Positions 28,318 through 53,992 of a DNA stretch of 64,000 bases are shown here, piece by piece. The stretch's first letter is position 1. Every line of letters begins with the position of its first letter. The position numbers and the translations under genes were made by a program. Source of the stretch: Candidatus Hydrogenedentota bacterium (GTDB taxonomy: Bacteria > Hydrogenedentota > Hydrogenedentia > Hydrogenedentales > SLHB01). Below the pieces are notes generated by a model. It saw nothing but the letters and a program-made list of their open reading frames with translations. It did no database searches and was not told the origin of the DNA. The stretch spans positions 151,709 to 215,708 of the forward strand of contig BTWA01000007.1 in the NCBI GenBank assembly GCA_045863295.1, given 5' to 3'.

Positions 28318-28446
28318 GAGAACTCTTCCTTATGGATCCTGCACAAAAGGCATTCTTGCCATTCGCGGGGATTCACTTGTCGCTGACGGTCGAGTGACGC
28401 AATCGTCTATTCTGGAGTTGCACCCTGATTGTGGCAGAATGAAGGC

Positions 28447-29376
28447 ATGTCTGCCAATGCGCTCGACCAGTTTCTCCATCACCTTACGACCGAACGTGGC
28501 TATTCGCCTCATACCGTCCGCGCTTACATGCAGGATATCGAACAATTCTGCGTGTACCTAGAGGAAGGTCCGGCTGGTCTCGACAAACCTGCGGAGGAAC
28601 GGCCGCAACCCTCACTTTCTGTACTGCGCCGGGCGCAGCGGGTCGACGTGCGCGCTTATTTGGCCCATGTTCAAACGCACGGCGGCACGCCCAAAACCGC
28701 AGCGCGAAAACTCGCTTCGTTACGAGCGGCCTACCGATTCTTTATGCGCGTTGGCGAACTCGACATGAACCCCGCACAAAGTGTCAAATCGCCCAAGCTG
28801 CGGCGCGATCTGCCGGATGTACTCAGTATCCCGGAAGTTACCGCGTTACTGGAGGCACCGGACGCAGGCGAACCGCTTGGCGTCCGCGATCGCGCACTGT
28901 TGGAGACCCTCTACTCCAGCGGCATCCGCGCCGCGGAACTCGCCGGGCTCTCGTTGCGCGACGTCGACATAGTCGGCGGCACGATCAAAGTACTGGGCAA
29001 AAGGCGAAAAGAGCGAATAGCCTACCTGGGCCGACCCGCCGGAGAAGCACTCACGGAATACCTGCGAATCCGCGTTCAATTGGGCAATCCACGCCACGAA
29101 CGGCTCTTCGTCAACTTCCGCGGCGGTCCACTGACGACTCGAAGTGTGCAACGGGTTGTCGAGAAATACGTTCTGCAAGTGCTGCCCATGCGAAAGGAAG
29201 TCTCGCCCCACACCCTTCGTCATACCTTTGCTACGCATATGCTTAACGCGGGGGCCGACTTACGTGTTGTCCAGGAACTCCTGGGGCACGAAAGCCTTTC
29301 CAGCACGCAAATCTACACCCATGTCAGCATCGACCGCCTGAAGGAAATCTATCGCGACACCCATCCACATGCGTGA
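28447..29376 (+). CDS. xerC: Tyrosine recombinase XerC
   Basis: ERGYSPHTVRAY, RDRALLETLYSSGIR, GKRRKER, PHTLRHTFATHML, QELLGH, STQIYTHV, terminal HPHA. Confidence 0.88.
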   Translation: MSANALDQFLHHLTTERGYSPHTVRAYMQDIEQFCVYLEEGPAGLDKPAEERPQPSLSVLRRAQRVDVRAYLAHVQTHGGTPKTAARKLASLRAAYRFFMRVGELDMNPAQSVKSPKLRRDLPDVLSIPEVTALLEAPDAGEPLGVRDRALLETLYSSGIRAAELAGLSLRDVDIVGGTIKVLGKRRKERIAYLGRPAGEALTEYLRIRVQLGNPRHERLFVNFRGGPLTTRSVQRVVEKYVLQVLPMRKEVSPHTLRHTFATHMLNAGADLRVVQELLGHESLSSTQIYTHVSIDRLKEIYRDTHPHA

Positions 29377-29406
29377 TGGGACTAGGGTACAGTTGTTAAC
29401 TTACTG

Positions 29407-29436
29407 TTGACACGCCACCTTGACTTGTGCGATACT
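29407..29436 (+). promoter_or_regulatory. sigma70 promoter for the retron operon (TTGACA-N18-GATACT, extended TG)
   Basis: Perfect -35 at 29407-29412; TGcGATACT at 29428-29436. Confidence 0.6.
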
Positions 29437-29455
29437 ACGCAAGTACCCCAAGGTG
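29416..29455. repeat. Nested inverted repeat over the promoter (CACCTTG ACTTGTG ... CGCAAGT accc CAAGGTG), putative operator
   Basis: CACCTTG/CAAGGTG pair perfectly; ACTTGTG/CGCAAGT has one mismatch; both flank the -10 box. Confidence 0.5.
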
Positions 29456-29508
29456 TAGACAATTCACAGGAGGGCAAACTTCAGTTTAGGGTCGACGCGA
29501 TGTAGTAA

Positions 29509-29797
29509 TCTCTGGGTCTGAACGTGGCCATGCTAAATGGTCGCCTCCTCCCACCAGGAGGTAGGTCCCCCGCCCGCGTGTCAGGATGTATGCCTGTTAG
29601 TCTCGTGGTATCTCCGGTGTGCTTGCGTGGCAAGTGACTCTGGTATTGACGTGCCACAGAACTCGTAGCAAGTGTTGACAGGATACGCTGCGTGGACCTC
29701 ATATAGCGCAAACAAATGTTTCGCTATCAGTTCATGAAGGACCGGTGAGTCACATTGTAGTGGCGAGCCGGGCGGCCTGAAGAACAATACCCAGAGA
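29509..29797 (+). ncRNA. Putative retron ncRNA (msr-msd)
   Basis: Terminal inverted repeat TCTCTGGGT (29509-17) / ACCCAGAGA (29789-97); two short 5' hairpins; a long imperfect stem at 29563-29699; two further hairpins. Lies upstream of a retron-type RT. Confidence 0.7.
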
Positions 29798-29813
29798 AGG
29801 GAGGTGAATCCAT

Positions 29814-30278
29814 ATGGATACGCAATCTGAAGTTCGCGTCGCCCCTGGCCAGCAAGCTGCAGTCGATAAGTTGGATGCCATGATCAAGTTGCTACGATCA
29901 TCCGTCCACAAGGTGGAGCAGCGTGATGGCCAAGGCTGCGCAGAGCTGCGACTGGTTTTGGCTGAGGCCGAAGAGATCTTGGCAATACTGAAATCCGATC
30001 GGGCAGCCAATGCGATCGATTGGAAAAAGATTGGTCAAGTGCTCCGGTTTCTTTTGGACCTGTTGAAAGTGGTCTGTTCCTTTTATAACTGTGTATTCCC
30101 CAGATGGAGAGGTAATGGACACTGGGTTGATCATAAAGAAGATACGCGTAAGCGAGTCTCTGACACAGGACGAGCTTGCCACCGAACTGGATGTTACGCG
30201 AGCATATCTTTCCCAAGTGGAAAATGGTCGAAAACACTGCAGCTTAGACTTATTGCGCAAAGTCGCGCAGAGATTTGA
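29814..30278 (+). CDS. Small alpha-helical protein, putative retron effector (3' end uncertain)
   Basis: Strong SD GGGAGGTG; amphipathic helical first ~90 aa. The remainder overlaps the HTH gene. Confidence 0.6.
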   Translation: MDTQSEVRVAPGQQAAVDKLDAMIKLLRSSVHKVEQRDGQGCAELRLVLAEAEEILAILKSDRAANAIDWKKIGQVLRFLLDLLKVVCSFYNCVFPRWRGNGHWVDHKEDTRKRVSDTGRACHRTGCYASISFPSGKWSKTLQLRLIAQSRAEI

Positions 30279-30417
30279 TATTCCCATTGCTCTATTGCTG
30301 GCGTGGGAAGATGATGCAAGTGTCGATGCGGAGTTAAACGGGAGGTTACAACGGTTATTCATGGAGATTCTTTCCGCAAGAATTGCTAAGACCCAGTCTC
30401 CCAGGCCCACTGGCTGA
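30115..30417 (+). CDS. XRE/Cro-C1 helix-turn-helix protein (retron-associated)
   Basis: IKKIRVSESLTQDELATELDVTRAYLSQVENGRK; SD GGAGAGG before ATG at 30115. Confidence 0.9.
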   Translation: MDTGLIIKKIRVSESLTQDELATELDVTRAYLSQVENGRKHCSLDLLRKVAQRFDIPIALLLAWEDDASVDAELNGRLQRLFMEILSARIAKTQSPRPTG

Positions 30418-30428
30418 ATTAGGCCGTC

Positions 30429-31364
30429 ATGAAGGGGGCTAAATCTGACGCACTTGAAATCCGATCCATGGCGCACCTTGCACTTTGCTTAGGCATAAGC
30501 CCGGCAGCGCTGCATGATCTGCTCGCTAATCCTGACAGCTTGTATAGAACATGGTCACAGACGAAGAAAGGTAAGAAACGGGACTATTGTGAGCCGTTGG
30601 AGCCCTTGAAAACTGCACTGAGGAGTCTCAATGCGAGACTTCAAAAAGTAAAGCTCCCGCCATATTTCTATGGTGGAATTCGTGGCCGGTCGAATATTGA
30701 CAATGCTAAGGCGCATGGCCCGAATCGCACACTTCTTAAGGCTGATATAAAGGATTTCTTTCCGAGTATAGATCGCCAAAGGGTACAAGTGATGTTCGAG
30801 AAAAAGTTGCGCTGTTCAGGTGAAGTTGCAAGAGCGATTTCTATTCTCTGTACCCATGAAGACCGGCTTCCCCAAGGGGCGCCAACGAGTACGATGATTG
30901 CGAATTTGGTAGTCGAGCACCTTGCTTTTAGACTGCATCGTCTTGCTCAATTCCATGGGGCCACCTTTACACAATTTGTTGACGATATCTCCATTTCGGG
31001 ACCAAGCCATCTTATTCAACTTGAAGACCTCGTCGCTCGTATAATCGAAGAGGAGGGATTCACTTGCCATCCTCAGAAGCTCTGTACTTTAGGGAAATCC
31101 TCTGAGCAAGTGATCACGGGGGTAAGAGTGGATCATGGTTTAGATGTACCTCTGGAAAAACTATCAGATGTAAGGTCAGAAATAGAAGAGCTAGCACATC
31201 TCAATTCTTCGGACGATGAACTGTACAGAAAGTCGATTCGGTCCATTGTGGGCAGAATCGCATACATTGGAAGTCTGAATAAGGGTTTGGGAAAACAACT
31301 TTCGTGTCGATTAAACGAAGTACTTGGAGACGCTGGTTTATCTGGACAAGTCAATCGAGCTTAG
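30429..31364 (+). CDS. Retron-type reverse transcriptase
   Basis: NAKAH (region X NAxxH), ADIKDFFPSI, LPQGAPTS, FVDDISISG, QVITGVRV (region Y VTG-like). 311 aa with no maturase or endonuclease domain. Confidence 0.92.
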   Translation: MKGAKSDALEIRSMAHLALCLGISPAALHDLLANPDSLYRTWSQTKKGKKRDYCEPLEPLKTALRSLNARLQKVKLPPYFYGGIRGRSNIDNAKAHGPNRTLLKADIKDFFPSIDRQRVQVMFEKKLRCSGEVARAISILCTHEDRLPQGAPTSTMIANLVVEHLAFRLHRLAQFHGATFTQFVDDISISGPSHLIQLEDLVARIIEEEGFTCHPQKLCTLGKSSEQVITGVRVDHGLDVPLEKLSDVRSEIEELAHLNSSDDELYRKSIRSIVGRIAYIGSLNKGLGKQLSCRLNEVLGDAGLSGQVNRA

Positions 31365-31633: not shown

Positions 31634-32836
31634 ATGCAAGTAGAAATAATAATGATAGGAACCGAGCTTCTTCTCGGCCAGATCGTAGATACCAACGCTT
31701 CTATGATGGGTCGGCATCTTGCTGATAACGGCATTCCTATCTATCTGAAGACTACGGTTGGAGACAACAAAAACCGCATCGTAAAAGTACTGGAATCGGC
31801 GTTAAGCCGCGCCGACGTGGTGCTCACGTCCGGCGGCCTTGGCCCTACGGAAGACGACCTCACACGAGAAGCCGTGGCGGAGGTCTTTGGGGTACCGCTC
31901 GAATACCACGAGCATCTTTACGACGAATTAGTCCGGCGCTTTTCAAAGCTGTCCCGCAACATCACTCCCAACAATAAGAAGCAGGCATATGCGCCGCAGG
32001 GTGCCACAATCTTGCCCAATCCGAACGGAACCGCGCCGGGGTTTCGGTGCGGCGATTCCCGCGGTGAAATCGTCTGTATGCCCGGGGTGCCCTTCGAATT
32101 GGAACCGATGCTGTGCGACCAGGTAATTCCGCACATCTGCAATACTTTTGGCGTAAAAGGGCTGATGCACTCGAGGGTACTGAAAGTGTGCGGCGTCGGC
32201 GAATCCAGAGTGGATGCGGCCATGGGCGACCTCATGGCCACACTGGAGAACCCCACAATTGGGGTTCTGGCCAGCCCGGAATGGGTTCGTATCCGCATCA
32301 CGGCGCGGGCCGAAACAGTCGAGGAGGCGGAAGCCCGGATTGCTCCCGTGGAAGCGGCTGTAAGGGAACGTCTACCCGGGCTCATTATGGGGACCGGAGA
32401 TGATACTTTGGAGGCCGTAGTAGAATCGCTCCTTGTTGAAAAAGGCTGGACCATAGCCACGGCAGAAACCATGACGTCCGGCATGATCGCCCAGCGATTG
32501 ACCGCAGCCGGCTCCAGGCAATTCCTGGGAGGTGAGAACCTTCCCATGGCGGCGTTCAAGGGCCGCGCAACCTCTGAGCAAGCCTTGCAGTGGGCGTGTC
32601 AGACGCGTGACCGCTTTGGCGCGGCCTGTGCGCTCGCCGTACTGGCCAACCCTGAAGATCGGCGTTTGCTTGTCGCATGGGTGTGTCCAGAGGGGCAAAC
32701 CCTTATGGAGGCAGGGTTTGGGCGCATTACGCCAGTATTTCAGCTGCGTGCATGCACCCATGCGCTGGAACATGTTCGTAGGTCCATTCTGGGAGTAGTG
32801 GATCCGTTTGCGGAGCCTACCTCCAAGAACATTTAA
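31634..32836 (+). CDS. cinA: CinA-family competence/damage-inducible protein (MoCF-binding domain + degenerate PncC domain)
   Basis: IGTELLLGQIVDTNA, VGDN, GGLGPTEDDLT, GTAPG, MPGVPFE, GVGES. Confidence 0.9.
   Translation: MQVEIIMIGTELLLGQIVDTNASMMGRHLADNGIPIYLKTTVGDNKNRIVKVLESALSRADVVLTSGGLGPTEDDLTREAVAEVFGVPLEYHEHLYDELVRRFSKLSRNITPNNKKQAYAPQGATILPNPNGTAPGFRCGDSRGEIVCMPGVPFELEPMLCDQVIPHICNTFGVKGLMHSRVLKVCGVGESRVDAAMGDLMATLENPTIGVLASPEWVRIRITARAETVEEAEARIAPVEAAVRERLPGLIMGTGDDTLEAVVESLLVEKGWTIATAETMTSGMIAQRLTAAGSRQFLGGENLPMAAFKGRATSEQALQWACQTRDRFGAACALAVLANPEDRRLLVAWVCPEGQTLMEAGFGRITPVFQLRACTHALEHVRRSILGVVDPFAEPTSKNI

Positions 32837-53901: not shown

Positions 53902-53992
<91 letters not shown>

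Follow-up and report, generated by a model that had tools for sequence, protein, structure and literature searches.

Type VI retrons combine a reverse transcriptase (RT) bearing NAXXH and VTG, motifs named as retron RT hallmarks, with a Cro/C1-type helix-turn-helix (HTH) protein of 91–110 aa (cluster 2_1) and a small protein of three helices (Mestre et al., 2020; PMC7736814). The published small proteins (SP; clusters 2075_1, 2760_1, 3272_1 and 3897) are three-helix bundles of 75–79 aa. By the account of a later preprint on Sen3 (Garcia-Rodriguez, Martinez-Abarca, Molina and Toro; 10.64898/2026.04.27.721009), the 2020 survey did not find any structured non-coding RNA (ncRNA) for Type VI, the one large retron class that was then without a predicted template RNA. 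Going by the partial text of the sources, from which all three are cited here, the RNA has been described only in that preprint and in one on Retron-Vpa2 (Zhang et al., Shipman lab; 10.1101/2025.10.22.683967), both of 2025–2026 and both on proteobacterial lineages. We describe here what appears to be a Type VI ncRNA at positions 29509–29797 of a 64,000-nt stretch (the window, taken whole) from a Candidatus Hydrogenedentota bacterium (assembly GCA_045863295.1, contig BTWA01000007.1, positions 151,709 to 215,708 of the forward strand).

In Retron-Vpa2, a hybrid RNA of ~470 nt is reported to join the msr-msd to the coding sequence (CDS) of a toxic small protein, whose ribosome-binding site (RBS) and AUG lie in stem-loops. 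The HTH protein represses reverse transcription, and multicopy single-stranded DNA (msDNA) of 63 and 86 nt, made from one long stem-loop, is needed to derepress SP translation (10.1101/2025.10.22.683967). The cl2075 lineage, which includes Sen3, is described with a conserved ncRNA within ~280 nt of the SP start. This ncRNA has terminal inverted repeats and stem-loops SL1–SL6, of which SL3 (~166 nt) is the candidate DNA stem-loop; the SP RBS lies in the basal stem, an extra stem-loop precedes the 5′ repeat, and a long-range IR1–IR2 interaction reaches beyond SP. Sen3 constitutively produces single-stranded DNA (ssDNA) of ~112 and 145 nt, and its HTH protein neutralises SP (10.64898/2026.04.27.721009).

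We read 29509–29797 as the msr-msd ncRNA of such a retron, in an operon ordered promoter, RNA, SP, HTH, RT, and put the probability of this at roughly 85%. The initial annotation of the window had proposed a long, multi-domain msr-msd RNA at this place, which is supported by the Type VI gene set downstream and by structure that is conserved without conservation of sequence. Its expectations of an RNA more branched than the classic msr-msd and copied only in part also agree with what the preprints report for Vpa2 (63- and 86-nt msDNA) and Sen3 (~112- and 145-nt ssDNA). It had missed that the RNA continues straight into the open reading frame (ORF) of the presumed toxin, that the closing stem adjoins the toxin RBS and covers it in 6 of 11 loci, and that the RNA class is already in print. 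Given this continuity with the toxin ORF, the RNA probably represents a hybrid RNA's non-coding half.

The element lies in the intergenic region 29377–29813, between the gene of an XerC/D-type tyrosine recombinase and a small ORF that begins at 29814, and has a GC content of 0.55. The minimum free energy (MFE) fold of its plus strand has −116.0 kcal/mol, with a 9-bp stem, P1, closing a multiloop that holds five domains. P1 is formed by the inverted repeat TCTCTGGGT / ACCCAGAGA, found exactly where it had been annotated (29509–17 / 29789–97). The fold uses every outer helix that had been named: hairpin H1 (GGCCAT/ATGGTC), hairpin H2 (CCTCCT/AGGAGG, which the MFE fold widens to 29543–62), the base of the long stem SL3 (AGGTCC 29563–68 / GGACCT 29694–99), and hairpins H4 (ATAGCG-AAAC/GTTT-CGCTAT) and H5 (CCGG-GTCAC/GTGGC-CCGG), all of them confirmed in position. 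The pairings annotated for the interior of the long stem (CCTGTTAG/TTGACAGG, GCTTGC with the distal GCAAGT, and GTGGCA/TGCCAC) are feasible, but they are not those of the MFE fold, in which GCUUGC pairs with a nearer GCAAGU copy; enforcing them gives −106.8 kcal/mol, 9 kcal/mol worse, and we have set them aside. The G-U pairs, described earlier as many, are moderate in number at 12 of 99 MFE pairs. Comparison with shuffled sequences, which the initial annotation had suggested as a check, gave z = −3.70 on the plus strand (dinucleotide shuffles −97.4 ± 5.0 kcal/mol; 0/200 as stable). The reverse complement reaches −95.5 kcal/mol with z = −1.53, equalled in stability by 14/200 shuffles. The fold is thus strong on the plus strand only, a strand-specific signal of the kind expected for RNA.

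Relatives of the locus were sought in genomes of the phylum and in metagenomes. An RT match at E ≤ 1e-20 was found in 16 of 135 genomes of the phylum, and a close RT only in two of the same order (G031 and G035; 48–49% identity), which were also the two returned by a profile scan of genome contigs. A single-protein scan of genome contigs and a word-based search with SP found no close relatives. The metagenome scan yielded 26 loci, 15 of them with RT identity of 38–55%. Three were dropped as duplicates over 1100 compared bases (L033, 99.9% identical to L034; L037 and L038, identical to L036), and four because the contig ends before the RNA (L035, L041, L044, L046). Ten distinct loci were thereby left for comparison with the window locus, denoted W: L018, L019, L034, L036, L039, L040, L042, L043, L045 and L047. 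All ten have an SP homologue directly before HTH or RT. The record of L018 is titled as an uncultured Nitrospirales metagenome-assembled genome and is apparently the same assembly as G031, which is placed in the order of W and of a metagenome-assembled genome titled Candidatus Hydrogenedentes; one of these labels is probably wrong.

The same architecture recurs in the ten other loci, with pair-count statistics above controls. When the stretch that begins with the 5′ repeat and ends at the SP start is folded, P1 closes its MFE structure in all 11 loci, at 8–13 bp (4 + 5 bp in L019) and with arms of differing sequence (Table 1). The domain order H1, H2, long stem, H4, H5 is found in 8 of the 11, and a long stem of 106–179 nt occupies the SL3 position in 8 of the 11 MFE folds, its interior not being conserved. 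Per-locus dinucleotide shuffling gave 0/100 equally stable folds in 9 of the 11 loci (z −3.1 to −8.2), and the plus-strand MFE lies below that of the minus strand in every locus. From a structure-free MAFFT alignment, RNAalifold recovers H1 and H2. Over these two hairpins 86.8% of the alignment cells are paired, vs 74.5 ± 2.2% after column shuffling (0/500) and 41–61% with the partners slid. Ten of their 11 pairs are changed on both sides (5/6 in H1, on the MAFFT-only alignment, and 5/5 in H2, where 80% of cells are paired), with a covariation score of 0.696 vs 0.452 (0/500). The pyrimidine 5′ arm and purine 3′ arm of H2 are kept in all 11 loci.

Consensus folding of the 3′ domain on the MAFFT alignment gave no structure; the hairpins were misaligned there, and a covariance model of this domain was therefore built instead, from W and L039 with the structure of W. 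It was searched against 54 sources (293,416 bases), with the duplicates L001–L003, L037 and L038, and also L059–L068, excluded. The model made one match per locus, ending at the SP ATG, with E from 7e-36 to 0.7, in W, L039, L018, L019, L040, L033, L034, L036, L045 and L047, and had no match in ~40 loci of more distant RTs. In the resulting alignment (A8), which was fitted to the W/L039 model and so inflates pairing, 79.3% of the cells of the domain are paired, vs 61.7 ± 2.2% when shuffled (0/500) and 35–46% when slid, and 20 of 28 pairs are changed on both sides. Support is good for H4 and H5 (76–91% paired). The two helices of H4 are 86% and 76% paired with 8/10 pairs changed on both sides, and those of H5, whose sequence differs in every locus, 91% and 84% paired with 9/10. 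The helix GUUC (29730–33) / GAAC (29782–85), which encloses H5 within 29730–85, is weaker (A8 helix 3, 67% paired). Conserved in sequence are the G before H1, the CCUCC.../...GGAGG of H2, the single-stranded motif CAGUUyrUGAAGA, GCGGCC/CAGRC after H5, and the SP RBS GGAGGUGA; around the latter, GGAGGTGA hardly varies among the 11 loci. The structure of the RNA is conserved with compensatory changes, beyond chance across evolution.

That the fold arises by chance in GC-rich intergenic DNA, or reflects coding on the minus strand, is so improbable as to be negligible. The region is indeed overlapped on the minus strand by two ORFs (29481–29711 and 29581–29787; 76 and 68 aa), and its GC content would suit a chance fold, but the z-score of −3.7 belongs to the plus strand only, and hairpins that keep their position while changing sequence with compensation in ten loci are the opposite of coding conservation.

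The 5′ part of the RNA carries the candidate priming site. An invariant G stands 4–6 nt before H1 in all 11 loci: at the column equivalent to G29520 in six of the seven group-1 loci (alignment A5), shifted by 1 nt in L039, and in the four group-2 loci within UUGAAG at equal distance before H1, these four having an inserted hairpin. The initial annotation had suggested this G as a possible branch point, and because of its invariance G29520 is the best candidate for one. SL3 is the most likely template for reverse transcription, perhaps together with H4 (29703–29727), by analogy with the ~166-nt SL3 of Sen3 (10.64898/2026.04.27.721009) and with the mapping of the Vpa2 msDNA (10.1101/2025.10.22.683967), as these are described in the preprints.

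Table 1. Features of the window locus (positions count from the first base of the window), with the P1 arms of four loci.
Feature	Position	Strand	Remarks
XerC/D-type tyrosine recombinase gene	28429-29376		Pfam Phage_integrase 1.3e-45
Promoter-like site	29407..29436	+	TTGACA, 18 nt, GATACT preceded by TG; 10/12 consensus matches
5′ leader (predicted)	29443..29508	+	Shine-Dalgarno-like AGGAGGG at 29468-29474
P1 5′ arm (IR5, a1-like)	29509..29517	+	UCUCUGGGU; P1 closes the MFE fold in 11/11 loci
Single-stranded linker	29518..29525	+	CUGAACGU; holds invariant G29520, branch-G candidate
Hairpin H1, msr-like	29526..29542	+	GGCCAU/AUGGUC; 92.4% of cells paired
Hairpin H2	29543..29562	+	CCUCCU (anti-Shine-Dalgarno-like) 5′ arm, AGGAGG (Shine-Dalgarno-like) 3′ arm
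Long interrupted stem-loop SL3	29563..29699	+	137 nt; candidate msd template
Hairpin H4	29703..29727	+	AUAGCG-AAAC/GUUU-CGCUAU; alignment A8 helices 1-2
Conserved single-stranded motif	29728..29741	+	CAGUUCAUGAAGGA; CAGUUyrUGAAGA recognisable in 11/11 loci
Hairpin H5	29742..29771	+	CCGGU..GUCAC/GUGGC..GCCGG; A8 helices 4-5
P1 3′ arm (IR3, a2-like)	29789..29797	+	ACCCAGAGA; closes the MFE fold
SP ribosome-binding site	29799..29807	+	GGGAGGUGA; begins 2 nt past P1
SP, small helical presumed toxin	29814..30278	+	154 aa; conserved core ~residues 1-100
Cro/C1-type HTH protein	30115..30417	+	100 aa; Pfam HTH_3 3.2e-13; PADLOC HTH_VI 2.1e-19
Retron reverse transcriptase	30429..31364	+	311 aa; Pfam RVT_1 8.5e-14; PADLOC RT_VI 8.1e-71
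P1 arms, W			UCUCUGGGU / ACCCAGAGA
P1 arms, L018			UCUCUUAAGU / ACUUAAGAGA
P1 arms, L039			UUCUCCUCAGGUU / AACUUGAGGAGAG
P1 arms, L042			CCCCCUUUC / GAAAGGGGG

The genes downstream of the RNA are those of a Type VI retron. The best PADLOC model for the RT is RT_VI (236.5 bits over profile positions 4–274 of 279; the next, RT_II-A, scores 174.1 bits), membership of the Type VI group (clade 3) being assigned by hidden Markov model match and not by tree placement. Its motifs are NAKAH (residues 92–96), FVDD (183–186) and ITGVRV (229–234); three RTs share N92, H96, T230, G231 and V232 without variation, and TG is preceded by I in place of V. The HTH ORF ends 11 nt ahead of the RT start. SP has no Pfam or PADLOC match and is conserved in 11 other loci. 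AlphaFold2 predicts helices at residues 11–36, 42–62 and 70–94 (mean pLDDT 68.5), with residues 97–134 below pLDDT 50. A profile search of a library of 1.84 billion proteins returned 121 cluster representatives of the SP family at E ≤ 1e-3 and 67 at E ≤ 1e-10, and in the ten clusters that were looked up every name is 'hypothetical protein'. The RT and the HTH protein match the definition of Mestre et al. (2020), and SP is predicted to form a three-helix bundle like the published small proteins, with a longer core (~95–100 aa vs 75–79); we take the locus for a Type VI retron of SP-HTH-RT order.

A modelled complex of HTH and SP, computed from a 9-row HTH alignment and a 12-row alignment of SP residues 1–100, scored 0.76 (runs 0.76, 0.77 and 0.70), and the best of three controls 0.16. 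Of 157 solved complexes 116 attained the mark for such scores, compared with 2 of 215 mismatched pairs, counts that hold only approximately with custom alignments. The models place HTH residues 55–93 against SP residues 44–91, with contact agreement of at least 94% and partner pLDDT of at least 73. An HTH-SP interface is thus supported by the modelling, and would fit the toxin-antitoxin relation of the Sen3 type.

The SP frame overlaps HTH out of frame by 35–212 nt in the eight loci measured (W, L018, L034, L035, L036, L040, L042 and L043), in W by 164 nt (30115–30278). Disorder is predicted for the SP tail within the overlap, where the conserved HWVxHK reflects the other frame, which encodes the conserved N-terminus of HTH. 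[quoted passage not shown] HTH was found in 9 of the 13 loci searched and is absent from L019, L045, L047 and the short contig L041. In L019, L045 and L047 the fetched 4–6 kb hold RNA, SP and RT and no HTH gene, SP ending 23–49 nt ahead of the RT gene. A natural variant distinguishes the near-identical L033 and L034 (1476–2291 in both): a W codon has become a premature stop in the SP frame of L033, truncating the presumed toxin, with HTH and RT intact.

The operon is followed by cinA at 31634. The cinA orthologues of nine relatives have no xerC within 1.5 kb, and no empty site could be defined for an insertion between xerC and cinA. The same genome holds a second retron-like RT (G000, contig C53:17137–17769, labelled L017; 35% identity, E 1e-22), where the 3′-domain model has no match. 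Elsewhere in the window, a tRNA-Ser with anticodon CGA (53902–53992) is the sole Rfam or ARAGORN match.

The promoter-like site sits 73 nt ahead of the 5′ repeat, and transcription would be expected to start near 29443. Such sites are not enriched by count alone (two in the scanned region vs 3.3 ± 1.8 in shuffles); TTGACA-type boxes occupy the equivalent relative position in L034, L036, L039, L040, L042, L043 and L045. No terminator-like site was found between RNA and SP. Three of the 23 listed public runs are RNA libraries, and their contigs match the locus with 0–1 differences: 29754–29907, 29899–30052 and 30226–30423 in X8, 30307–30558 in X20 and 30965–31118 in X21, the matches over 29754–30052 and 30226–30423 being exact. 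One contig (29754–29907) spans the boundary of ncRNA and SP. No contig of the three libraries covers 29509–29753, and for that part the contigs are uninformative either way. They are compatible with transcription of an operon that includes the ncRNA/SP junction, with the limit that contigs cannot show ends, strand or level and may include DNA.

Besides this limit of the RNA evidence and the fitting of the 3′-domain alignment noted above, several observations weigh against a Type VI msr-msd at this place. The fold z-score is weak in L019 (−1.4) and L036 (−2.0), and at E ≤ 1 the 3′-domain model found neither L042 nor L043. No Rfam family matches the RNA (at gathering thresholds, the tRNA-Ser at 53902–53989 was all that the window yielded, and 29300–30500 gave nothing at E ≤ 10), so that membership rests on context and published descriptions and not on a model common to both. 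In E. coli, no RT-DNA was detected from six Type VI retrons, as the Sen3 preprint reports of Khan et al. (10.64898/2026.04.27.721009). Conserved pairing of the ncRNA beyond SP, a feature of Vpa2 and Sen3, was not reproduced, the partners differing between loci. Direct repeats of the Vpa2 type, sought between the ncRNA interior and the SP start (−12 to +40), are at chance level in 10 of the 11 loci (300 shuffles per locus; p ~0.03 in L042, 0.25 in W, 0.17–1.0 in the other nine). Finally, in W the Shine-Dalgarno sequence (SD) of SP is outside the basal stem, P1 ending at 29797 and the SD starting at 29799, which makes translational repression by the RNA less evident here.

The position of the SD relative to P1 varies between loci. 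P1 covers it in L036, L042, L043, L045 and L047, and in L034 it is mostly paired. The mean unpaired probability of the SD-region pentamer, for which GAAGG and not the core GGAGG was scored, is 0.34 in W, 0.33–0.43 in L018, L019, L039 and L040, and at most 0.13 in L034, L036, L042, L043, L045 and L047, where it is mostly IR5 that pairs with the SD. An 8-nt direct repeat, GGATACGC, occurs at 29681–29688 in the 3′ strand of SL3 and at 29816–29823 in SP codons 1–4, and is not unusual (p ~0.25).

It is conceivable, though on balance we think it somewhat unlikely, that P1 is a stem for translational control of SP and not the a1/a2 helix of priming, with priming from another helix (for example one formed with the 3′ end of a hybrid RNA beyond the SP core, as in Vpa2) and from a branch G other than G29520. 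The overlap of the P1 3′ arm with the SD in 5–6 of the 11 loci would fit a regulatory stem. In L042, L043, L045 and L047, moreover, the extra hairpin between IR5 and the invariant G means that this G is not adjacent to P1 in primary sequence. With P1 as a2 the template would also include H5, the single-stranded motif, H4 and SL3, up to ~225 nt vs the 63–145 nt reported. No conserved long-range helix was found that could take the place of P1, however, and the Sen3 ncRNA is itself described with P1-like terminal inverted repeats. Around the start of HTH, IR5 lacks a consistent partner, a CCCAGA match there being codons of the conserved SP motif FPR, and the partners of the ncRNA within SP and HTH vary between loci. 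Of eight loci, only L018 and L034 have the region at HTH +25 as the best of 298 windows; in W it ranks 14th. An alternative a1/a2 pair, UGAAC in the linker with GUUCA in the single-stranded motif, is present in W and is not kept in L039, L040 and L019. In L018 (2229–2258) and L034 (2213–2242), ~27 nt into HTH, there is a perfect complement of 10–11 bp to a segment of the long stem, its partner position inside the ncRNA differing between loci.

The leader adds a Shine-Dalgarno-like repeat. In 6 of the 11 loci (L034, L036, L039, L040, L045 and L047) AGGAGGT(GA) stands ~45–60 nt ahead of IR5 and is repeated at the SP RBS; in W, CAGGAGG is found at 29467–73 and again in the 3′ arm of H2. In local folds the leader copy pairs with IR5 in L036, L042, L043 and L045, and this pairing could be an alternative to P1. 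Leader folds vary between loci. A leader ORF behind the Shine-Dalgarno-like repeat was considered and rejected, as only mini-frames of 1–5 codons or none at all were found and these are not conserved. In L034 (1529–2291), an ATG 7 nt past the repeat opens a frame that runs through the ncRNA in frame with SP; its listed version begins upstream at a GTG and has 271 codons, and the other loci being without it, it is probably due to chance.

These elements bear on the proposal that the RNA is only a cis-acting riboregulator in the 5′ untranslated region of SP, never reverse-transcribed, while the RT uses another template or has a non-templating role. The RNA adjoins or covers the SP RBS, the leader repeat could compete for IR5, three loci keep RNA and SP without HTH, and Type VI retrons are often without RT-DNA in uninduced cells, going by the preprints as excerpted. 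We nevertheless consider this very unlikely: the RNA is always beside this RT clade, the 3′-domain model being absent from the ~40 loci with other RTs, and a variable stem of 106–179 nt is unnecessary for a simple SD-masking switch. In Vpa2 and Sen3, as described, this part of the RNA gives rise to RT-dependent ssDNA, and RT catalysis is needed for defence.

If, as we prefer, 29509–29797 is the msr-msd of a Type VI retron, a single transcript from ~29443 would carry the RNA and the SP CDS as a hybrid RNA. P1, the linker with its invariant G, H1 and H2 would form the part for RT recognition and priming, where the RT, with the HTH protein, might bind; SL3, perhaps with H4, would be copied into single-stranded msDNA primed from the 2′-OH of a G. 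The 3′ domain and P1 would set a stable multi-helix junction against the SP RBS, or on top of it as in many relatives, and so keep toxin translation low. By analogy with Vpa2 and Sen3, interference of a phage with RecBCD or recombination could then raise msDNA or release SP from HTH, and the freed SP would stop growth of the infected cell. The mode in this lineage may be Vpa2-like (translational derepression), Sen3-like (post-translational) or both. A Sen3-like component is favoured by the supported HTH-SP interface, and a component at the level of the RNA by the masking of the SD by P1 in six relatives, together with the loci that lack HTH.

A more speculative proposal, to which we give little weight, is that the toxin is under two coupled and so far undescribed cis devices, competition for IR5 and read-through of SP across the HTH start. 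In the first, the Shine-Dalgarno-like copy in the leader and the SP RBS region may compete for the pyrimidine-rich IR5, toggling between an SP-off state (P1) and an SP-on state (leader-IR5). In the second, the obligatory passage of ribosomes in the SP frame past the HTH start may make toxin translation alter that of the antitoxin. The loci without HTH would, were this true, rely on the RNA switch alone.

The locus is a new environmental lineage of the known Type VI retron RNA and not a new kind of element, and the general picture of retron function is unchanged by it. W and its ten relatives show the same RNA plan (a repeat that closes it, a pair of small hairpins, a long and variable stem, 3′ hairpins and the toxin RBS) in a distant, uncultured environmental lineage, with a different and larger SP family, and provide an independent sequence set for covariation-based models of Type VI RNA. 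Invariant across them are the G before H1, the CCUCC/GGAGG hairpin, CAGUUyrUGAAGA and an SD beside the closing stem; SD masking, the presence of HTH and long-range pairing beyond SP vary.

Compared with the classical retrons (PMC7736814, as excerpted), the locus shares closing repeats, a G just 3′ of the 5′ arm, msr-like hairpins, a long msd-like stem and an adjacent RT with NAXXH and VTG-type motifs. It differs in that the RNA is much longer (289 nt between repeats) and fused to a toxin mRNA; from the long stem to the 3′ repeat it also holds additional 3′ hairpins and a single-stranded motif that is conserved. With Vpa2, as described in its preprint, it shares a structured msr-msd arm that leads, on one strand, into the RBS and CDS of a small protein (55 aa in Vpa2, according to 10.64898/2026.04.27.721009), HTH and RT downstream, a long stem-loop as the likely msDNA template, and an RNA positioned to restrict SP translation. 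Unlike P1, the a1/a2-like repeat of Vpa2 uses the transcript's 3′ end beyond SP, and Vpa2 has conserved 7-nt direct repeats in the msd loop and the riboregulator loop, for which 10 of the 11 loci here are at chance level. For the leader repeat of the W lineage we found no mention in the partial text of the Vpa2 preprint (10.1101/2025.10.22.683967).

The likeness to Sen3 and the cl2075 lineage, as their preprint presents them, is closest. Common to both are the SP-HTH-RT order and a structured ncRNA within ~280–300 nt upstream of SP that has terminal inverted repeats, small hairpins on its 5′ side, a long central stem-loop of variable interior and 3′ hairpins. In both, the SP RBS is at the basal stem or inside it, SP is helical and the HTH protein is proposed as its antitoxin. 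In W, IR5 lies 305 nt before the SP ATG, and the 9-bp closing stem, five domains and 137-nt central stem are as the cl2075 description has them. Unlike Sen3, the hosts of the W lineage are uncultured environmental bacteria and not Proteobacteria, the SP core is ~95–100 aa vs 79 with no detectable family name, and the SD of W is 2 nt outside the basal stem that holds the RBS in Sen3. The SP frame, moreover, overlaps HTH, which leaves no SP-HTH spacer to hold an IR2, and no equivalent of IR1–IR2 was found. The anatomy of the RNA is otherwise that of Sen3 almost point for point, which supports its interpretation as an msr-msd of a kind already known.

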